Source: Escherichia coli (GTDB taxonomy: Bacteria; Pseudomonadota; Gammaproteobacteria; Enterobacterales; Enterobacteriaceae). From it: a DNA stretch of 64,000 bases. Made by a program: the position numbers and the translations under genes. Below are positions 6,472-54,227 of this stretch, piece after piece. The notes beneath the pieces are model-generated. The model worked only from the letters and a program-made list of their open reading frames with translations, did not search any database and had not been told where the DNA came from. The DNA is taken from assembly GCF_009931435.1 (NCBI RefSeq), contig NZ_CP043414.1. One strand, given 5' to 3'. Position 1 is the first letter of the stretch. Every line of letters begins with the position of its first letter.

Positions 6472-7476
6472 ATGTCTGGTTCTGTTGCCGTGACACGCGC
6501 CATTGCCGTGCCCGGATTGCTGTTATTACTGATTATCGCGACGGCATTAAGCCTGCTCATTGGGGCAAAATCACTCCCCGCTTCCGTAGTACTGGAGGCC
6601 CTCTCCGGCACCTGCCAGAGCGCCGACTGCACCATCGTGCTCGACGCGCGACTGCCGCGCACCCTTGCCGGTTTACTGGCAGGCGGCGCGCTTGGGCTTG
6701 CCGGGGCGTTAATGCAAACCCTCACCCGAAACCCACTTGCCGACCCCGGCTTGCTTGGCGTGAACGCCGGGGCCAGCTTTGCCATTGTGCTGGGCGCGGC
6801 GCTGTTTGGTTACTCATCCGCGCAGGAACAACTGGCGATGGCCTTCGCCGGGGCGCTGGTGGCCTCGTTGATTGTTGCCTTTACTGGCAGCCAGGGCGGT
6901 GGGCAGTTAAGTCCGGTGCGTTTAACTCTGGCGGGCGTGGCGCTGGCGGCAGTGCTGGAAGGGCTGACCAGCGGCATCGCCCTGCTTAATCCCGACGTCT
7001 ACGATCAACTGCGTTTCTGGCAAGCCGGTTCGCTGGATATTCGTAATTTACACACCTTAAAAGTAGTGCTGATCCCGGTGCTGATCGCTGGAGCAACTGC
7101 ACTATTACTGAGCCGCGCGCTGAACAGTTTAAGCCTCGGCAGTGACACCGCGACGGCGCTGGGCAGTCGCGTAGCACGCACGCAGTTGATTGGCCTACTG
7201 GCGATTACCGTGCTTTGTGGTAGTGCGACGGCGGTAGTTGGCCCGATTGCCTTTATTGGCCTGATGATGCCGCATATGGCGCGCTGGCTGGTAGGTGCCG
7301 ATCATCGCTGGTCGCTGCCCGTCACGCTGCTCGCCACACCTGCCCTGCTGCTGTTTGCCGATATTATCGGGCGGGTGATTGTTCCCGGCGAACTGCGCGT
7401 TTCTGTAGTCAGTGCCTTTATTGGCGCACCAGTGCTGATCTTCCTTGTACGACGTAAAACGCGAGGTGGCGCATGA
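6472..7476 (+). CDS. fepD: Ferric enterobactin ABC transporter permease FepD
   Basis: ORF containing MSGSVAVTRAIAVPGLLLLLIIATALS...; start placed at the internal ATG at 6472; stop overlaps the fepG start. Confidence 0.9.
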   Translation: MSGSVAVTRAIAVPGLLLLLIIATALSLLIGAKSLPASVVLEALSGTCQSADCTIVLDARLPRTLAGLLAGGALGLAGALMQTLTRNPLADPGLLGVNAGASFAIVLGAALFGYSSAQEQLAMAFAGALVASLIVAFTGSQGGGQLSPVRLTLAGVALAAVLEGLTSGIALLNPDVYDQLRFWQAGSLDIRNLHTLKVVLIPVLIAGATALLLSRALNSLSLGSDTATALGSRVARTQLIGLLAITVLCGSATAVVGPIAFIGLMMPHMARWLVGADHRWSLPVTLLATPALLLFADIIGRVIVPGELRVSVVSAFIGAPVLIFLVRRKTRGGA

Positions 7477-42546: not shown

Positions 42547-43500
42547 ATGCGGGCGAAACTTCTGGGAATAGTCCTGACAACCCCTATTGCGATCAGCTCT
42601 TTTGCTTCTACCGAGACTTTATCGTTTACTCCTGACAACATAAATGCGGACATTAGTCTTGGAACTCTGAGCGGAAAAACAAAAGAGCGTGTTTATCTAG
42701 CCGAAGAAGGAGGCCGAAAAGTCAGTCAACTCGACTGGAAATTCAATAACGCTGCAATTATTAAAGGTGCAATTAATTGGGATTTGATGCCCCAGATATC
42801 TATCGGGGCTGCTGGCTGGACAACTCTCGGCAGCCGAGGTGGCAATATGGTCGATCAGGACTGGATGGATTCCAGTAACCCCGGAACCTGGACGGATGAA
42901 AGTAGACACCCTGATACACAACTCAATTATGCCAACGAATTTGATCTGAATATCAAAGGCTGGCTCCTCAACGAACCCAATTACCGCCTGGGACTCATGG
43001 CCGGATATCAGGAAAGCCGTTATAGCTTTACAGCCAGAGGTGGTTCCTATATCTACAGTTCTGAGGAGGGATTCAGAGATGATATCGGCTCCTTCCCGAA
43101 TGGAGAAAGAGCAATCGGCTACAAACAACGTTTTAAAATGCCCTACATTGGCTTGACTGGAAGTTATCGTTATGAAGATTTTGAACTCGGTGGCACATTT
43201 AAATACAGCGGCTGGGTGGAATCATCTGATAACGATGAACACTATGACCCGGGAAAAAGAATCACTTATCGCAGTAAGGTCAAAGACCAAAATTACTATT
43301 CTGTTGCAGTCAATGCAGGTTATTACGTCACACCTAACGCAAAAGTTTATGTTGAAGGCGCATGGAATCGGGTTACGAATAAAAAAGGTAATACTTCACT
43401 TTATGATCACAATAATAACACTTCAGACTACAGCAAAAATGGAGCAGGTATAGAAAACTATAACTTCATCACTACTGCTGGTCTTAAGTACACATTTTAA
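42547..43500 (+). CDS. ompT: Outer membrane protease OmpT (omptin)
   Basis: 317-aa ORF MRAKLLGIVLTTPIAISSFASTETLSFTPDNINADISLG... ending ...ITTAGLKYTF. Confidence 0.93.
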   Translation: MRAKLLGIVLTTPIAISSFASTETLSFTPDNINADISLGTLSGKTKERVYLAEEGGRKVSQLDWKFNNAAIIKGAINWDLMPQISIGAAGWTTLGSRGGNMVDQDWMDSSNPGTWTDESRHPDTQLNYANEFDLNIKGWLLNEPNYRLGLMAGYQESRYSFTARGGSYIYSSEEGFRDDIGSFPNGERAIGYKQRFKMPYIGLTGSYRYEDFELGGTFKYSGWVESSDNDEHYDPGKRITYRSKVKDQNYYSVAVNAGYYVTPNAKVYVEGAWNRVTNKKGNTSLYDHNNNTSDYSKNGAGIENYNFITTAGLKYTF

Positions 43501-43749: not shown

Positions 43750-44499
43750 TCAGTCAATTGTTTTGTTTATTCCATCTGTGACGCCGATTATTTTCTCAAA
43801 ATAATGAGATGGCGTGACACCATAATAATCTTTAAATGCACATATGAAATATGAAGTACTGTTATAGCCACATTTCTGGGCTACGACATTGATAGAATAA
43901 GAGTTTGAAGTTATGAGTTTTTTTGCATACCTCATCCTAGTATCTCTCAATATTTCAGTAAATGACGTTCCTTCATCCCTTAATCTTTTTTTTATTAAAC
44001 TTTCACTCGTATAAATCAATTCCGCAATATCTTTTAAATGCCATTGCCGCTCAATATTAAAACTGATTATTCCAGTAATTTTACAGGTAAATGTATTTAT
44101 ATTTGTTAGTATAAATGAATTTACACTTTCGCGTTTTTTGAACATGGCAAGTAAGGATATACATAGTCTTTCTTTTAACCAAAGGGAGTGTGAGTCTGCT
44201 ATTTTAATCCCTTCAAACAGAGAAAAAACAAGCGATAATGGAGGTTCCTCTTCAGCAATATAGCCATTCTTATCAAGAGTAAATTTGCCAGGCAGCTCAT
44301 TATTCACGTCGATAAAAAAGGATAAACATGTTTTCTTATCTATATCAACAATTCTTAGTTTAGAGGGGCATACTGGTAACTCCCTTCTAATTTTGTCGCT
44401 TACAATAAACAATGAATTTTTTTTGAACGAGATAACTCTCCTGTTTATAATTAAATCAAATGATTGACAGATGAAAACTACGGAGCAAACATAATCCAT
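43750..44499 (-). CDS. appY: AraC-family transcriptional regulator AppY
   Basis: 249-aa [36 protein letters not shown]...; very AT-rich, with a long AT-rich upstream region (44500-45100). Confidence 0.88.
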
Positions 44500-45443: not shown

Positions 45444-46040
45444 TTGGGAGTATCAAATCGGCTTGCATGGGGATGTCCTACAAAGGAACACCTTCTTCCA
45501 CACCTTCTTCCACACTTTCTGGAACATTTAGGTAACAACCATCTGGATATTGGTGTTGGAACTGGGTTTTACCTTACTCACGTACCTGAGAGTAGTCTGA
45601 TATCTTTAATGGATTTGAACGAAGCTAGCCTGAACGCGGCATCTACAAGGGCTGGGGAATCAAAAATTAAACATAAAATTAGCCATGATGTTTTTGAACC
45701 TTATCCCGCGGCGTTACATGGTCAATTTGATTCCATTTCCATGTCTTACCTTCTTCACTGCCTGCCTGGAAATATATCTACAAAAAGCTGTGTAATACGC
45801 AATGCGGCGCAGGCCTTAACTGACGATGGAACTCTATACGGAGCCACAATTCTTGGCGATGGAGTTGTGCACAATAGCTTCGGTCAAAAACTGATGCGCA
45901 TTTACAATCAGAAAGGCATCTTTTCAAACACAAAAGATTCCGAAGAAGGCTTAACACATATACTCTCAGAGCATTTCGAGAATGTTAAAACCAAGGTTCA
46001 AGGTACTGTAGTAATGTTTTCCGCTTCAGGAAAAAAATAG
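45444..46040 (+). CDS. ybcY: Putative class I SAM-dependent methyltransferase (YbcY-like), possibly N-terminally truncated or a pseudogene
   Basis: 198-aa ORF with glycine-rich motif I (LDIGVGTGFY); the only in-frame start is a TTG, with no upstream ATG or GTG before the stop at 45375. Confidence 0.55.
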   Translation: MGVSNRLAWGCPTKEHLLPHLLPHFLEHLGNNHLDIGVGTGFYLTHVPESSLISLMDLNEASLNAASTRAGESKIKHKISHDVFEPYPAALHGQFDSISMSYLLHCLPGNISTKSCVIRNAAQALTDDGTLYGATILGDGVVHNSFGQKLMRIYNQKGIFSNTKDSEEGLTHILSEHFENVKTKVQGTVVMFSASGKK

Positions 46041-46094: not shown

Positions 46095-46679
46095 TTACTC
46101 CCTGACAGGGTTCGTAGGCCACTCAATATCAGGTGCAGTTGATGTATCAACACGGTTCAGCAACACCCGATATTTTTTCCAGGCTTCCAGCAATGAGGTT
46201 TCTTCCTCCGTTGCGATTTCCAGATCTACAGCATCCTGAAGTGGCGCAATATGCTCACTGGCTACCTGCATCAGGCTGTTTTTTGTTTCTTCCGCCTCCC
46301 GAATCCGGAACAGTTTTTCTGCTTCTGCATCTTTCACCCAGGCTGTACCGTTCCACTTCTGAAACTCCCCTTCCGGCGATAACCAGGTAACATTTTCCGG
46401 TAACGGACCGAGTTCAGAAATAAATAACGCGTCCCCTGACGCTACGTCATAAACCGTTTTACCCCGATGATCTTCAACGAGATGCCACGATGACTCATCA
46501 CTGTTGAAAACAGCCACGAAGCCAGCTGGAATATCTGGCGGTGCAATGTCGGTACTGTTTGCTGGCAGACCTGTATGAGGCGGAATATATGCGTCACCTT
46601 CACCAATAAATTCATTAGTTCCGGCCAGCAGATTATAAATTGTTATGGTCCGTGGTTGTTCACTCATTCTGAATGCCAT
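46095..46679 (-). CDS. tfa: Tail fibre assembly protein Tfa
   Basis: 194-aa [56 protein letters not shown]...; start overlaps the stf stop. Confidence 0.9.
46119..46260. repeat. Direct repeat copy B of the tfa 3'-end segment (inside the intact tfa)
   Basis: Partner of 45059-45200. Confidence 0.7.
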
Positions 46680-49600
46680 TATGCAAGCCTCACAATATAG
46701 TTAAATGCGATGTTTTTGACGGTGTTTTCCGCGTTACCAGCAGCGTTAACGGTGATGGTGTGTCCATGTGAGCCAATCGCAACCGAGTGCGTATGAGCAC
46801 CAATACCGACAGTATGTGCGTGTGCACCTGCGCTTGCTGCAGTGCCGGACAGTGAGTGGGTATGAGCACCATCTGATGATGTCTTCCCTGCATTACGAGT
46901 CTGGCCACTACCGCTTGTTGTGCTCATAATCCCCGCGCTTGGATTTGAAATCGCGGTATAACCATTAGGGAAAATGCTCGTGTTCGTGCCACCAAATGCA
47001 CCGGAACTCTTGTGTTGGTGCGCACCGGCACTATTTGCGGTCCCGCTAATACTATGGGTATGCGCCCCGGTGTTATTCGTGGATTTGGTTCCGTAATCAA
47101 ACGACGATGTGGTTTTCGTCCCCAAATCCGTACTGGATGCGCTGGCGCTGTGGGTATGCGATTTAATGCCGTCCTGTTCCTGAGACAATACGGCCCGACC
47201 ACTGGCAGGTTTGCCCTTAATCGTCCAGCCACGCATATCAGGGATCACGCCTGACGGATAAGCCGCTGCAAGTTTCGGGTAGGCAGATTTGTCAAAAGCC
47301 TGCCCCTGCATCAGGGCATAGCCAGACGGAACGGTATCTGATGGCCACGGGATTGGTGCGCCGACTGGGTAGCTTTCTGGTGGAAGATTTTTCGAGGTAT
47401 AAACTTCTGCCCAGTCTTCCTCAAAACCATAGCCATCTCTTGAGGAACGGTAGAACAGACCTCCATTTCTGTAATGCGCCTTCATCTGCAGGGTCCGGCA
47501 ACTTCCGACTCCGGTATAGAAGTTAACCAGAATATAGCTGTCGCCAGAGCGGGTGACATTGTAAGCGCCTGATTCGGCATTCCAGGGAACGCCACCATCC
47601 GCATCGGCATATGTATCCGTTGCCCTTCTGGCAAAAGCAGCCACATGCGCGGCGGTTAAAGTAATATCTTTGGAACCATCAAACTCAACACCAGAAACCA
47701 GTCTTGGCGTTTGCAGCTTTGTTGCTGTTAATGCATTACCGTTCAGACTTGCGGACAGTTTGGTTCCAATAATCAGTTCGCCGGTTGCGTTATCAATAGC
47801 AAACGGTCTTAATGTATTCCAGCCACCATAAACATCACCTTGATTGGTAAGCAGCAGGTAAGTTTTAGCGCCATCATTACGCCATAATGCACCATACTCC
47901 CCACCTATCATTCGAATCTGATTACCACCACGCGCTACAATTTCGTCTGTGGCAAAAAGTTTTTTGCACGACAAGTTATCGTTAACGATTAACGAATGAG
48001 ACTCATAAAAACCACGCCCACTCTTAAAATCAAGGATAACGTCCGCCGCGATACATTCAGTCGCCGGATTTGTTGCCCCAAACTTATAGGTCGTATCATT
48101 AACAACGAGATCAGCACCAGGTGCGGATATTGACAGGCCATCTTCGATAAACGCAAAAACAGGGAAAGCAGCGCCATCAACATAGAACACAGAGCGCAAA
48201 TCATCGCCCTTATTACTCATCATTATTGAGTGGATGGCTCGTTCATTGTTTTGATATTGCCAGAACATTCCATAAGCATAACGCCCCCTGTCAGTCCAGC
48301 CACCAGGCATAACAAATCCGTTAAACTCGCAGTTATTCATCGGATCGCCTGCGGTTCGCGTTGCCGTGGTGATAATGACCCTTGATGCCAGTTCGCTTAC
48401 TGAGCCAGCAGAACGCATAACAACAACAGGGTAATATTTTCCAGATGTTGCACCTGCAGGAGCGTTAACCCGCACATAACGCATACCACGCTTATCAGCA
48501 AAGTCTGTTTTACTGACCGCGTTAATGTTGTTCAGGAAGCGTCCCTTATCGGGTATATCAGCGCCGTTCTGGTCTTTCTGCAGACGTTTCTCTGCATTGT
48601 CATAGGCTGATTTTACTGCCTTTGGCGTTGCCGCCAGCGTTTCAGACGTACTGTTGGTCGCACTGCTGAGCTGTACTACCCCCTTTTTCGTCGTGCTCGC
48701 ATCCTCAAGCGCCACGGCGGATGCAATATCCTCTGCCCGTTTTGCCGCTGTCTCGGCGCGCGTTGCCGCGGATTCCGCCGTACTTTTGCTCTGAGCTGCC
48801 GCCGTCGCACTGCCAGCTGCCTCTGTCGCCTTCGTGGATGCCGTCGTGGCGCTGCTCTTCGCTGCTGACGCTTGTCTGGTCGCCTCATCTTTTGAAGCAG
48901 ACGCAGATGATGCCGATGACGCCGCCGAACTGGCTGACGATGCGGCAGCCGTTTTTGAGGATTCTGCGCTGGTTTCCGACGCTTTCGCGTTCGTTTCGGA
49001 TGTCTTCGCTGCGGAAGCAGAACTCGCTGCTGCGCTGGCCTGTTCAGTGGCTTCGCCAGCCTTCGTTGTGGCTGTTGAAGCAGACGATGCGGCACTTTCT
49101 GCCGACTTTCCGGCAGCGGTGGCACTGGCTGAGGCCTGCCCGGCACTTGTTGACGCGGCGCTGGCAGATGATGCAGCCGCTGTTTTTGAGTCTGCTGCTG
49201 CGGAGGCACTCTGTTCCGCTGCCGTCTCAGAAGACTTAGCGTTCGTCTCGGACGTTTTTGCCGCCTTCGCGGAATTTCCTGCCGCCGTTGCCGAGGAAGC
49301 TGCGCTACTGGCGCTCGAGGATGCGTTCGTTTCTGATGATTTCGCTGCCTCTTTTGAGGCCGCCGCATCCCTGGCTGAGGTGGCAGCTTCTGACGCTTTC
49401 CTGGTCGCGGTGGATGCAGAAGTGGCTGCTGATTGTTGTGACGCTGCGGCATTCGTTTCTGACGTTTTCGCCGCACCGGCACTGGTGGCCGCCGCGCTTT
49501 TTGAGGACTCTGCAGCGGCAGCACTTTTTTCCGCTTCAGTGGCCTTTGCTGATGCCGTTCCTGCGCTGGAAGATGCTGACTGAGCCGACGACGCGGCCTG

Positions 49601-50086
49601 TCCGGCTGACGTGCTGGCTGCGCGTGCTGAGCCTGCAGCATCAGTCGCATGGGTTGCCGCCTCACTGGCAGATGTGCTGGCATCGCCGGCTGACTTCTTC
49701 GCGGCTGCCGTGTTTTGTGCCACCGCGGACGCGTTACGCGCCACCTCTTCCACCATCAGTTCAAAACGGCGCAGAGCCTCCGGACGGGCATCATCCTCCG
49801 TCATGGCACCGAGAAAATCATTCAGCGTACCGGGTCGGGAATCTTCATACACGGTGATGGTCCCGGCATGTGACGGCGGGAATCCTTCCACCAACAGAAT
49901 AACGCTGTACTGACCGTACTCAACGTCCATGCTGTAACGCCCGGCTTCATCCGGATTTTCTGAGGCCAGCGTGTTCACCACCACCGCGGTGCTGTTACGT
50001 TTTGCTTTCAGCTGGATTGTGCAGTTCTGTACCGGTTTTCCTGTGCCGTCTTTCAGTACACCTGAAATCTTTACTGCCATATTCAC
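46679..50086 (-). CDS. stf: Side tail fibre protein Stf (lambda Stf / StfR-like)
   Basis: 1135-aa [40 protein letters not shown]...; long Ala/Ser/Thr-rich repetitive shaft; C-terminal His-rich GAHTHS-type motifs and ...[13 protein letters not shown]. Confidence 0.9.
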
Positions 50087-50096
50087 CCCACAAAAA

Positions 50097-50118
50097 AGCC
50101 CGCCTGAACAGGCGGGCT
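50097..50118 (-). terminator. Intrinsic terminator hairpin between lom and stf
   Basis: agcccgcct / aggcgggct stem with a 4-nt loop, preceded on the plus strand by aaaaaa (a U-tract on the minus-strand transcript). Confidence 0.6.
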
Positions 50119-50144
50119 GTCATAACACTGTGTTACCTGGCTAA

Positions 50145-50744
50145 TCAGAACTTATAACCGACACCCACGATGAAACCGTCAGTGCGCCAGTCGCCACTGC
50201 CGGAGCCTTCATAAGCAATATCAATGGCCACGGATTCGGTCGGGTTAAACTACACGCCAGCTCCCCACGCCAGAGACGTGTTGCTGTGGCGACCGTCATC
50301 ACTTCCGGTCAGCACGTCGTGCGTTTTCCCCTTGTTGTCAGTTACGCGGAGATAATCCCCGGAGAAAGTCGACACACGGCTGTAAGCCATACCCGCCATC
50401 GCATACGCGCTGAACCATTCATTCACGCGCACAGACGGCCCCACCATCACGCTGAACCAGCGGTTACGCACGGAATCTTCATGCCAGCGGGTATTGCTGT
50501 AACGGGTAAGCTGGCGATTCTTGTCTCCTGCATAGCTGAATGACGTCACCAGCCCCAGTGTGTCCGTAAACTCATAACGGTATTTCACGTTAATCCCGTT
50601 AAGATCATCGCTGCCGGGAACGTTCGTCGAGGCATGAAGATACCCCGCGCTCAGCGTGGACTGATGTTCAGATGCCCATGCAGGCGCACCGGATACGGTC
50701 AGACAAATGGCTGCGGACAAAATGGCGGCATAAAGTTTACGCAT
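50145..50744 (-). pseudogene. lom: Lom-like outer membrane protein gene interrupted by an in-frame amber codon
   Basis: 164-aa ORF MRKLYAAILSAAICLTVSGAPAWASEHQSTLSAGY... stops at TAG (50252-50250); the same frame continues FNPTESVAIDIAYEGSGSGDWRTDGFIVGVGYKF to a TGA at 50147-50145, with Q expected at the TAG position. Confidence 0.75.
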
Positions 50745-50813: not shown

Positions 50814-53800
50814 TCAACGAATACTGATGCCGGAAGCGGCTTTTTTGGTCACAATCACCGTACAGTCGGTGATATTACCTGCCCACTGATTGCCTTTATG
50901 GAAAACCTTAAACTCCAGAGTGACGCTTCCCCTGCCACTCGGCATATCAATAACCGCACTGTAGCTACCGGGAATGGCCCCTTTAGTTTCTCTGGATGCG
51001 ATTAATACACCGTTTTTGCGAACTTCAAAACCATAACCCGTGTATCTTGTACCTCCCGGGTTATTACCACTTCCCGGATCGCTATACGCTATTCCGTTAA
51101 AGATAATGGGCGGAATAATGATTTGACGGTCAAAGTTATGATCATCGCTGATGGTGACTGTAACCGTCCCGTTTGGTGTTTCCGTGTTACCCCACGTACC
51201 AGCCTGTTTCGGAAATGATTTGGATACAGCTTTAACGAAGTCACCTCTGACCTGAGTCGCCTCCAGCATGCCCTTAATTGTACAGTTTTCATTTACCGTG
51301 ACATTGTTGAGCGTCCCGGCGTTCGCATTCACACTGCCACTGATATCCGCATTTTTAGCGGTCAGCTTTCCGTCTGATGTCAGGGAAAATACCGGTGGAT
51401 TTCCACCGCTGGTAATGGTGGGGGCCGTCAGGCGCTTCAGGAACACGTCGTTCATGAATATCTGGTTGCCCTGCGCCACAAACATCGGCGTTTCATTCCC
51501 GTTTGCCGGGTCAATAAACGCGATACGATTGGCGGCAACCAGAAACTGGCTCAGCTTGCCTTCCTCCGTGTCCTCCATGCTGAGGCCAATACCCGCGACA
51601 TAATGTTTGCCGTCTTTGGTCTGCTCAATTTTGACGCCCCACATCGCATTCCATTTATCGTTAGCGTCCTTCCACTCTTTCGAAAACTCATCCAGTCTGC
51701 TGGCGTTATCCTCCGTCAGATCAACTTTTTCCAGCAGCTCTTTACCGAGATGGGATTCGGTTATCTTGCCTTTGAAAAAATCCAGGTAACCTTCCGCATC
51801 ATCGCTCGCCCGACCAACAGCCTCCACGAATGCCGATTTGCCAACGGTGTTCACACTGCGAACGTAAAAATAATAATCATGGCCCGGTTTGATATTGATA
51901 CTGGCGGCTATCCAGTACAGTGCCGTACCAAGATAACGCGCGCTGGTTTCAACCTGCCTGATATCCGCAATCCGTTTTTCCGAGAACCAGAACTCAAACT
52001 GTACCGTCGGGTCATAAACCGCAAGATGCGGCGTGGCGGTTATCTGAAAATAGCCCGGCGTCAGCTCAATCCGCGACGGCGCTGCCGGTGCGGCAATCCG
52101 GAACGATACCGACGCCGGATCGCCCTGCTGTCCCCACGCATTTACCGCCCGGACTGTCAGCGTGTACCGTCCCAGCGCCAGTTGCGTGAAGCGGTATGTG
52201 GTTTCCGTCGTCCGGGCCGTGCTGACCAGCCGCTCACTGCCGTCATCCGCTGTTACGGTCAGACGGAGCAGGAAGCTCACGCCCTTCACCACCTTCGGCG
52301 TGTCCCAGCGCGCCAGCACCTGATATTCCCCGCTGTCTGCGGTGACTTCGGCAGTCAGGTGCTGCACCGCTGGCGGCGTGACACCATTCACCGTGCCGCT
52401 CTGGTCGCCGTCAAAGTGCGCCCCGTTATCCACGATGGCTTCTTTTTCCGGTACATGCTGCACGGCGGTGATGGCATACGTGCCGTCGTCGTTCTCACGG
52501 ATACTCACGCAGCGGAACAGGCGCTGGCGCAGCGTCGGCAGCTTCAGCCCCCACACGCTGTATTCAGCAACGCCGTCAGGAACACGGCTCACTTTCACCT
52601 TCACGCCGTCGGTGACGGACTGAACCTCCACGCTGACCGGATTGCCACTTCCGTCAACCAGGCTTATCAGCGTGGTACCGGAGGATGGCAGCGTGATTTC
52701 ACGGTCGAGCGTCAGCGTCCGGGTCTGGCTGTTTACCGCCAGCACGCGCCCGCCGGTGCTGATACCGGCATAGTCATCATCACAGATTTCAATGACATCG
52801 CCCGGCACATGGCGAAGCCCTTCTGCGCCCACGCTGAAGTCCACGGTCTGCGTTTCCAGCAGTTCTGTTTTAATCAGCCATAGCCCGGCGCGATGTGCCT
52901 GCCCCCGGCTGGTACAGCCAAAGGCATCCATCTTCGTGACGTTACGACCGTAACGGGCAATGGCCTGCGTGTCCTCCACAAGCTCTGTCGCCGTCTCCCA
53001 GCCGTTATTCGGGTCAATCCAGTTCACCTCAACGGCATTATGGCGGTCCTTCAGGGCGCTGAAGCTGTAGCGGAACGGCGCGCCATCATCCGGCATCACC
53101 ACATTACTGCGGTTATAGGTCCACACCTTATCCGATGGTCGGTCCTGCACGAACGTCAGCGTCTGCCCGTTCCATACCGGCATACAGCGCATCGCCGAGC
53201 AGAAATCACTGAGCACATCCCACGCCTTGCGCTGTGTGGTCAGGTACGCATTACAGGTGATGCGCGGCTCCGTGCCGCCAAAGCCGTCCGGCACTGACTG
53301 GTCGCAGTACTGGCCGATGACATACAGCGCCCATTTATCCACATCCGCCGCACCAAGACGTTTCCCCATGCCGTAGCGCGGATGGGTCAGCATATCCCAC
53401 AGACACCAGGCCATGTTGTTGCTGTATGCCGGTTTAAACGTTCCGTCCCAGATACCGCTGTATTGCCGCGTCTGCGGGTTATAGTTCGACGGCACCTGCA
53501 GAATGCGCCCGCGCAGATGATAATTACGGCTCACCTGCTGGCTGCCGAACTGCTCCGAATCCACCTGCACGCCGACCAGTGCCGTGTTCGGGTAGCCCTG
53601 TTTCACATCGATGATTTCGGTGTATGACGACCAGAGCGTTTTGTTCTGCAGCTGGTCTGTGGTGCTGTCCGGCGTCATCCTGCGCATCCGGATATTGAAC
53701 GGGCGCGGCGGCAGGTTACCCACCACCACCGAGGCCAGATACTGCGAGGTGGTTTTGCCCTTAATGGTGATGTCTTTTTCCGTCACCCAGCCACCATTAC

Positions 53801-54227
53801 GCTGGATCTGAACCAGCAGGCGGACTTCCGACGGATTCCTGTCCCCCTTTGAGGTGGTTTCCACCAGTGCCTGCACGCCGAAGGTAAAACGCAGTCGGTC
53901 AATGTTTGCCGACGTGATGGTCCGGGTGATCGGCGTGTCGTATTTCACTTCCGTACCCAGCACCGTCTCGGAGCCGGAGGATTCAAATCCCTCCGGCGGT
54001 GTCTGCTCCTGCTCACCGGCCCGGAACACCACCGTGACGCCGGAGATATTGGTATTCCCCTCACTGTCCAGCACTGGCGTACTGTTCAGCAGCACGCTTT
54101 TTAATCCATCCACCGGACCTTCAACCGGCCCTTCGCTGATGGCATCGATCACACTCAGCAACTGCGTGGACTTCAGGTTGTCCTTCGCTTCGCGCGGAGT
54201 ATGCCCCTTACTGCTGCCTTTACCCAT
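50814..54227 (-). CDS. J: Tail tip / host specificity protein J
   Basis: 1137-aa [57 protein letters not shown]..., lambda J-like over most of its length with a diverged C-terminus. Confidence 0.93.

Follow-up and report, generated by a model that had tools for sequence, protein, structure and literature searches.

The alanine/serine/threonine-rich shaft of an Escherichia coli lambda-type side tail fibre gene, its overlapping open reading frames and its length variation

A known counterpart of the protein studied here is the side tail fibre protein (Stf) of Ur-lambda, which corresponds to orf-401 plus orf-314 in lambda PaPa. An alanine core is also known from E. coli Lpp-56, an alanine-zipper trimer that forms a parallel coiled coil with Ala at the a and d core positions, and in which the alanine-zipper segment is only short. 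Long open frames opposite a real gene are known from the ambigrammatic narnaviruses, where genuine full-length reverse ORFs are codon-aligned with the forward gene and are kept open by avoiding CUA, UUA and UCA. In Ur-lambda, residues 102-393 of gpStf form the proximal coiled-coil domain of a fibre containing three copies of the protein, as described by cryo-EM/AlphaFold3 (PMC12617516).

We analysed a 64,000-nt stretch of E. coli DNA (hereafter the window), in which the side tail fibre gene and its neighbours are arranged as follows:
46095..46679, - strand: tfa, tail fibre assembly, 194 aa, directly downstream of stf
46679..50080, - strand: stf, lambda-type side tail fibre, 1133 aa, from ORF, Pfam and PDB matches
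48692..49732, - strand: Ala/Ser/Thr-rich shaft, Stf residues ~117-463, from composition and heptad register
50097..50118, - strand: hairpin resembling a terminator, in the gap from lom to stf (9-pair stem with 7 G-C pairs, then TTTTTTG)
50250..50744, - strand: lom
50814..54227, - strand: J

The stf gene starts at the ATG at 50080, directly preceded by GGGGTGA, and not at the GTG at 50086 from which the ORF listing (46679..50086) begins. Residues 1-134 match the Pfam phage_tail_N domain over its full length (PF08400, E 3e-71), and sequence searches matched residues 1-94 to PDB 9e7m 'Tail fiber protein' and 9mgh (E 1e-50) and residues 902-1133 to the T4 gp37 tip (PDB 2xgf, E 1e-82); lambda-type side tail fibres are characterised by a C-terminal receptor-binding part that resembles this tip, with His-x-His repeats. 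Pfam further assigns residues 663-762 to Gp34_trimer and 907-954 to Collar. The gene order J-lom-stf-tfa, all on the - strand, is the same in lambda and in phage ev099, and in ev099, lambda and others the position homologous to tfa carries a tail fibre assembly annotation. By its N-terminal domain, synteny and C-terminal part, 46679..50080 is thus classified as a lambda-type side tail fibre gene. It is 97.9% identical to that of ev099 and, over the shared parts, 87.7% identical in DNA to lambda. With Ur-lambda Stf it has in common the N-terminal collar domain, the family of Ala/Ser-rich coiled-coil sequence, the T4 gp37 tip-like C-terminal part and the downstream tfa. Unlike lambda, the shaft is 338 rather than 233 aa between the same landmarks, and so longer by 105 residues (15 heptads), and the middle of the protein carries the T4 gp34-like trimerisation domain; megablast aligns only 39% of the stf studied here with that of lambda.

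An earlier note on this DNA had described an Ala/Ser/Thr-rich region at 48650..49730, and its composition bears this out (A133, S88 and T42 of 361 residues, 73%). The note had called the region imperfect repeats; repeats are present, but they are not the loose low complexity that this implied, since they follow a strict heptad pattern. The shaft comprises ~49 uninterrupted heptads of the register A-x-x-A-x-x-S, with Ala in 35/50 heptads at position 0 and in 47/50 at position 3, and Ser in 37/50 at position 6. The power of the Ala signal at a period of 3.5 residues was 41, as compared with 9.5 at the 99th percentile of shuffled sequences. An AlphaFold2 monomer model (mean pLDDT 69) is helical through residues ~98-504 except for two short breaks, and the shaft helix probably starts near residue 100, at about 49790. 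With its uninterrupted heptads and with a and d positions filled by small or apolar residues, the shaft is a coiled coil, and it is the counterpart of the fibre's proximal coiled-coil rod, a known feature that is real but ordinary. The Ala core is shared with Lpp-56, and here it runs over ~49 heptads.

By homology with Ur-lambda Stf, the shaft would be trimeric. Having Ala at both core positions and Ser at position g over ~49 consecutive heptads, three chains may coil together as a thin rod some 50 nm long, which would join the N-terminal collar domain, clamped on the tail tip, to the receptor-binding part at the far end. The reading that we favour, with a probability of about 0.93, is that the shaft is this coiled-coil rod, that the ORFs overlapping it are by-products of its composition, and that recombination changes its length.

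The overlapping ORFs reported in the earlier note, a 335-aa frame and frames of 172-249 aa on the opposite strand, were recovered at those sizes, four in all:
48676..49683, - strand: 335-aa Arg/Pro/Gln-rich ORF in the +1 frame of stf, spurious
48834..49583, + strand: 249-aa Ala/Asp/Val-rich antisense ORF in frame a1, spurious but coding-like
48721..49239, + strand: 172-aa Leu/Pro/Arg-rich antisense ORF in frame a2, spurious
49258..49857, + strand: 199-aa antisense ORF in frame a2, spurious

The 335-aa product (R89, P54 and Q53, pI 12) has no match in Pfam or PHROG, and its frame has a codon score of -0.40. The 249-aa ORF matches phrog_560 end to end (E 1e-119), and the first 77 aa of the 172-aa ORF match phrog_3324; the 199-aa ORF, parted from the 172-aa ORF by a single TAG, has no family match in Pfam or PHROG. 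A Pfam scan of the alternative-frame products returned nothing except one sub-threshold chance match.

Second codon positions of the Stf shaft are 67% C and 1% T, and because of this, protein-preserving synonymous shuffles reproduced the open alternative frames. Under three null models the +1 frame was open in every shuffle, and the a1 frame had 2 stops, as compared with 0.9-1.7 expected. A rod of this sequence needs mostly GCN, TCN and ACN codons, and these give second positions that are mainly C and almost never T, with TA dinucleotides nearly absent. Because T is scarce and TA nearly absent, stops are unable to form in the +1 sense frame of this sequence and are rare in two antisense frames, and the leftover ORFs of 172-335 codons would be ones whose translation no cell needs. 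The narnaviruses likewise have a long open frame opposite a real gene; unlike theirs, the codon-aligned antisense frame of the shaft is broken by 25 stops, each due to a TCA serine codon, and composition accounts for the frames that are open in the shaft.

In a set of 51 distinct homologous shafts with nucleotide identities of 85-99.9%, stops were found in 0/51 in the Stf frame, 11/51 in the +1 frame, 51/51 in a1 and 49/51 in a2. Mean amino-acid identity in the +1 frame was 0.84, as compared with a nucleotide identity of 0.935. Polymorphic sites were distributed 67/59/213 over Stf codon positions 1/2/3 (third positions, 213/336), and diversity at four-fold sites was higher in the shaft (0.149) than in the N-terminal domain (0.079), which gives no hint of a second constraint. 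The overlapping ORFs thus differ from functional overlapping genes in frame intactness, excess openness and reduced synonymous variation alike. For the shaft DNA, PGAP gives no annotation other than Stf in the E. coli genomes listed. A consensus scan, which is weak evidence, detected no promoter-like site on either strand of 48300..50200, and our literature search for expression of an antisense shaft product gave no relevant result. The shuffles, the stops among homologues and the polymorphism at Stf third positions together support the proposal of the earlier note that these ORFs are frame artefacts.

The same note had proposed codon usage as a way to tell the frames apart, a check that would mislead: a1 scored +0.114 bits per codon, as compared with +0.014 for Stf. 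We therefore rejected codon-usage scoring of the six frames, as it did not pick out Stf. Amino-acid conservation per frame was likewise uninformative for a1, whose wobble positions are shared with those of Stf. It is because of these shared positions that a1 both outscores Stf and reaches an amino-acid identity of 0.94 among the 51 homologues, and neither conservation nor codon usage can exclude a1.

These two values are among the points in favour of the 249-aa ORF being a real overlapping gene, which might encode an acidic, Ala-rich helical protein and could, in the manner of a moron gene, be expressed from the prophage. It is of the same frame type as lambda orf206b (NP_040603), which likewise lies antisense inside the shaft-coding part of stf and is annotated in the lambda RefSeq record, and in 51/51 homologues its frame is free of stops from Stf shaft codon 52 to codon 313. 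All of this, however, follows from geometry and composition, as GCN reads as GCN in antisense and the wobble positions coincide, and the openness of a1 is predicted by the shuffles. Transversion diversity is also lowered where a1 has a two-fold degenerate codon: at Stf four-fold sites it was 0.023 where a transversion alters the a1 product, as compared with 0.089 (permutation P 0.0012). Yet gene J, which has no such ORF, gave 0.047 vs 0.090 when used as a control (a first J control, on the gene tail only, had just 4 usable sequences), and the AC and AG classes of the shaft, which a coding a1 should leave unaffected, were low in diversity too. These observations point to sequence context rather than a1 coding as the source of the low transversion diversity, and with the same pattern in the J control we rejected the test as evidence for a1 coding.

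Other features also argue against a gene at a1, for which the same promoter scan found no candidate. There is no Shine-Dalgarno-like sequence ahead of its GTG at 48834, and large parts of it are lost where the shaft is shortened by 14 to 220 residues or joined to other C-terminal modules. A search of 5.8 billion clusters matched only 18 predicted proteins, with 10-78% query coverage and inconsistently called, and PGAP leaves the ORF uncalled in the E. coli genomes listed. CRISPRi found orf206b to be nonessential in lambda, yet stf is nonessential there too (PMC10695390). In the literature found, no function or expression of orf206b is reported, and its sole mention is as a nonessential 'hypothetical protein' (PMC10695390). 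A real a1 gene is thus very unlikely, and we treat the orf206b / phrog_560 family as an annotation artefact rather than a gene family. Were it real, it would be a gene hidden in the only antisense frame to share the stf wobble positions and would so escape conservation tests, and about three in four complete E. coli genomes, those with the shaft, would have it.

The length of the shaft varies among related phages, as the comparison of homologous Stf proteins suggested in the earlier note revealed. From landmark to landmark we found five classes of 338, 324, 233, 226 and 118 aa. The differences from the 338-aa shaft are 14, 105, 112 and 220 aa; three of these are whole heptads, and the 220-aa difference leaves a 4-residue stutter. 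A protein search with the N-terminal domain was unusable for lengths, as it returned only proteins of 113-233 aa, mostly labelled partial. Global DNA alignments placed breakpoints clearly for the 336-nt and 42-nt deletions and ambiguously for the lambda-type and 118-aa variants. The 336-nt deletion lies between two motifs coding for AAK[S/T]SETNA, its junction marked by an exact repeat of 8 nt, and the mapped breakpoints fall at similar dispersed motifs.

Slippage or recombination had both been named as the source of this variation. The existence of length variants could also suggest a contingency locus, in which slippage at tandem repeats switches fibre length or frame at high frequency. In line with this, an A6 run (Stf codon ~184) is one A shorter in phage mEp332, shifting the frame inside the shaft, and another homologue (L074) has a 1-nt insertion near codon 298, but sequencing error or mutation in the laboratory could account for both single-base frameshifts. 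The only tandem array that TRF found in the shaft DNA consists of 2.8 copies of a 9-nt unit; members of the repeat families lie scattered and are only 62-93% alike over 15-45 nt. Moreover, the same length of 338 aa occurs in 53 of the 63 comparable shafts, that is, those ending in the same terminal motif. A contingency locus is therefore highly improbable, and slippage was rejected because the shaft DNA lacks tandem repeats.

The variation fits recombination between dispersed in-register motifs, which is the half of the earlier proposal that stands. Since similar motifs recur in heptad register, occasional recombination would delete or add whole heptads. It may also join the conserved N-terminal half of the fibre to different C-terminal receptor-binding modules while leaving the coiled coil unbroken.

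In one respect the overlapping frames depart from the shuffles. Frame a2 contains 1 stop, as compared with 8-10 expected under the three nulls (P about 0.001). This deficit arises because codon junctions of the form NCT|A are avoided in the shaft (1/62 vs 29/169), with an odds ratio of 0.08 as compared with 0.76 in the other genes of the window. Of all T|A junctions, 4 were observed, 3 of which form no stop, as compared with 15.3 expected in all. Gene J of related phages has the same neighbour-base pattern (T at 7% before A vs 20% before G), with a transversion diversity of 0.036 vs 0.105 in this comparison. The a2 deficit thus traces to neighbour-base codon bias, which J shows as well.

Selection for translation of the antisense strand, or for a product encoded there, as the keeper of the 172-aa and 199-aa ORFs is close to untenable: beyond the deficit itself it has in its favour that T at third positions in the homologues occurs at 4/29 sites before A and 55/123 elsewhere (P 0.0026), but 49/51 homologues carry 1-4 a2 stops (0-4 per sequence over the whole set, at 17 different sites), amino-acid identity in a2 is 0.83, far under the nucleotide identity, the product is Leu/Pro/Arg/Trp-rich with a pI of 12, T|A junctions unable to form stops are likewise depleted, and J shares the bias of T before A.

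As composition by-products of a coiled-coil rod, these ORFs make the shaft a recurrent trap for gene callers, in which one antisense frame beats the true gene on codon usage. Products of this trap have entered reference resources as lambda orf206b, phrog_560 and phrog_3324, whose existence the high a1 codon score may explain, and the RefSeq record of ev099 holds three opposite-strand CDS from it. Shaft DNA was found at 6646 places in complete E. coli genomes; 4102/5426 of these genomes have it, some at as many as seven places. The rod itself is already known and leaves current understanding unchanged. Changes in its length mostly keep the heptad register, which suggests that the reach of the fibre could be tuned without disturbing its fold, and that the shaft could serve as a safe crossover zone for swaps of receptor-binding modules; such a zone could help in the engineering of lambdoid fibres. 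Within the window, 25 open runs of 150 codons or more occur in alternative frames; the shaft, with 1.7% of the length, accounts for 4 of them, and the longest such run (501 codons) sits within gene J, outside the shaft.

The stf gene lies on the minus strand among the late tail genes of a lambdoid prophage, in the order J-lom-stf-tfa, and is 97.9% identical over its full length to stf of phage ev099 and 87.7% identical to that of lambda across the shared 39%. The genes, the Stf domains and the ORFs overlapping the Ala/Ser/Thr-rich shaft are as follows.

50814..54227, minus strand: J
50250..50744, minus strand: lom
46679..50080, minus strand: stf, encoding the 1133-aa Stf protein
46095..46679, minus strand: tfa
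Stf residues 1-134: 'prophage tail fibre N-terminal' domain
Stf residues 663-762: T4 gp34-like trimerisation domain
Stf residues 907-954: Collar domain
48676..49683, minus strand: 335-aa ORF (frame +1)
48834..49583, plus strand: antisense 249-aa ORF (frame a1)
48721..49239 and 49258..49857, plus strand: antisense 172-aa and 199-aa ORFs (frame a2)

The residue bias reported in the earlier note held, with Ala, Ser and Thr making up 73% of the Stf sequence under 48650..49730 (133, 88 and 42 of 361). The imperfect repeats that it described are also present, but are better termed a strict heptad pattern, and no tandem DNA repeat was found in the shaft. Stf residues 117 to 463 (48692..49732) form ~49 heptads without interruption, carrying Ala at heptad position 0 (35/50) and position 3 (47/50) and Ser at position 6 (37/50); Ala periodicity has a power of 41 at period 3.5 (99th percentile of shuffled sequences, 9.5), and in the DNA repeat families many copies start a multiple of 21 nt apart. 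An AlphaFold2 monomer model (mean pLDDT 69) is helical throughout residues 95-520 except for two short breaks. By sequence, residues 1-94 match solved chain 9e7m and residues 902-1133 the T4 gp37 tip (2xgf); the same comparison with solved structures returned none for residues 119-440. The homologous residues 102-393 of Ur-lambda gpStf were described in a 2025 cryo-EM study as the proximal coiled-coil domain of a fibre made of three gpStf copies, with four fibres per virion (PMC12617516). The nature of the shaft is therefore already established; the domain is known, and the prophage protein carrying it is very common. A diverged second shaft lineage (proteins P0106 and P0116, N-terminal domain ~85% identical) has a differing sequence (…SAGDASESARQAAESAASAKQSEEASSS…) that retains the heptad pattern S-A-x-x-A-x-x.

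All four ORFs described in the earlier note were present at the sizes it had given, along with a fifth overlapping ORF of 199 aa. Its reading of the overlapping ORFs as frame artefacts was borne out by homologous shafts. Scanning viral contigs yielded 80 loci with Stf N-terminal domains at least 95% identical, from which 51 distinct shaft DNAs of equal length (85-99.9% mutual identity) were compared. Stops interrupted frame +1 in 11/51 of these, a1 in 51/51 and a2 in 49/51 (spread over 17 positions), and the Stf frame in 0/51; the ORFs are thus artefacts. Polymorphic sites were most numerous at third positions of Stf codons (213, against 67 at first and 59 at second positions), and four-fold-site diversity, at 0.149 in the shaft versus 0.079 in the N-terminal domain, gave no visible sign of a second layer of constraint.

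In the shaft, C occupies 67% of second positions in Stf codons and T 1%. Openness of the other frames was compared with three nulls, in which synonymous codons were shuffled inside the shaft, codon order was shuffled, or the same protein was re-encoded with codon frequencies taken from J and from stf outside the shaft. Frame +1 was open in essentially all replicates, and a1 contained 2 stops against 0.9-1.7 expected. Frame a2 contained 1 stop against 8-10 expected (P ~0.001). A stop can arise in this frame only where an NCT codon precedes a codon starting with A; NCT codons account for 1/62 codons preceding A in the shaft, versus 29/169 preceding other bases (odds ratio 0.08 in the shaft, 0.76 in the window's other genes). 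T|A junctions overall stand at 0.26 of expectation in the shaft, against ~0.9-1.0 elsewhere in stf and in the window's J. This strong avoidance of T-ending Ala/Ser/Thr codons before A recurs in weaker form at conserved four-fold sites in J of related phages. Across the window there are 25 open alternative-frame runs of at least 150 codons. The longest, 501 stop-free codons at 51378..52880 (plus strand; listed as a 426-aa ORF), occupies the codon-aligned antisense frame of J and exceeds every spurious ORF of the shaft in length.

The possibility that a1 is a real gene is very remote. Codon-usage scoring, which the earlier note had proposed for telling frames apart, misled here, since a1 (+0.114) outscored Stf (+0.014). 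Because GCN stays GCN when read in a1 and the wobble positions of a1 and Stf coincide, amino-acid identity among homologues reaches 0.94 in a1, next to 0.95 in Stf and 0.83 in other frames. Transversion diversity at Stf four-fold sites was 0.023 where the a1 residue would change and 0.089 otherwise (permutation P 0.0012). We rejected this contrast as evidence of a1 coding on two grounds: the AC and AG classes of the shaft, where a1 coding predicts no effect, are also low, and J of related phages shows a matching contrast (0.047 versus 0.090) with no such ORF at stake. The contrast therefore reflects neighbour-base context, an effect that also accounts for the a2 stop deficit and is stronger in the shaft than in J. 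In J of related phages, diversity is 0.036 before A and 0.105 before G, and T occupies 7% and 20% of third positions, respectively. No promoter-like site was found on either strand within 48300..50200.

Shaft length, taken as the distance between the landmark EEVARNAS and a second, 12-residue motif, was compared among homologous Stf proteins and fell into five classes: 338 aa (53 loci including the window's), 324 aa (one locus, 14 aa shorter), 233 aa (seven including lambda, 105 aa shorter), 226 aa (one, 112 aa shorter) and 118 aa (one, 220 aa shorter). The first three differences equal 2, 15 and 16 whole heptads; the last equals 31 heptads plus 3 residues and, as we read the aligned sequence, leaves an 11-residue segment, a classical stutter. 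The 336-nt deletion fuses two AAK[S/T]SETNA-coding motifs that match exactly over 8 nt where they meet. The length variation anticipated in the earlier note is thus real, if infrequent; of the two routes it named, recombination between in-register motifs fits, and slippage does not. In other fibre types, different C-terminal modules start directly after the AAK[S/T]SETNA motif and, by inspection, the position 6 serine is retained across the junction. Single-base frameshifts inside the shaft occur at two loci and may be mutations or sequencing errors: mEp332 (PV340541.1) lacks one A of an A6 run at codon ~184 (homologous to window ~49530), and L074, another viral locus, carries one extra nucleotide near codon 298. 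The mEp332 frameshift resembles the side-fibre loss of lambda PaPa, whose frameshift is elsewhere in the gene; in the mEp332 record, stf is split into two CDS separated by a gap.

Opposite-strand calls persist in databases. The lambda RefSeq record (NC_001416.1, 2707..3327) still lists orf206b, an a1-type ORF, inside orf-401, and in that of ev099 (NC_049953.1, 3543..4966) three opposite-strand 'hypothetical proteins', gp22-24, are annotated in place of the N-terminal domain and shaft, leaving the genuine stf unannotated over its N-terminal two thirds. The families phrog_560, which matches the 249-aa ORF end to end (E 1e-119), and phrog_3324, which matches the start of the 172-aa ORF, appear to derive from such calls. 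Among the E. coli records listed, PGAP calls only Stf at this DNA, and a large protein collection yielded only 18 predictions of the a1 product, scattered and partial. Shaft DNA is present in 4102/5426 complete E. coli genomes, at up to 7 places per genome. In a database search with the Stf N-terminal domain, the best 120 matches (P0001-P0120) are all 113-233 aa long and mostly labelled 'partial'; some clusters comprise hundreds to thousands of sequences, and several of those inspected stop inside the shaft. Such proteins are likely explained by draft assemblies breaking at a shaft common to several prophages per genome.

A strong terminator-like hairpin (50097..50118, minus strand; 9 pairs, then T6) separates lom from the start codon of stf, so stf expression presumably requires antiterminated late transcription. 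An in-frame TAG ends lom at codon 165 (~50250..50252; …LAWGAGV*FNPTESVAIDIAYEGSGSGDWRTDGFIVGVGYKF), and the remaining Lom sequence continues past it in the same frame; lambda Lom has Gln at this position, and the window's lom therefore looks like an amber pseudogene or truncated variant. Downstream of tfa are a 198-aa ORF (45444..46040, plus strand) and, by eye, what we take to be an OmpT-like omptin gene (42547..43500, plus strand) and an AraC-type regulator resembling EnvY (43750..44499, minus strand), which together suggest a prophage at a DLP12-like locus.
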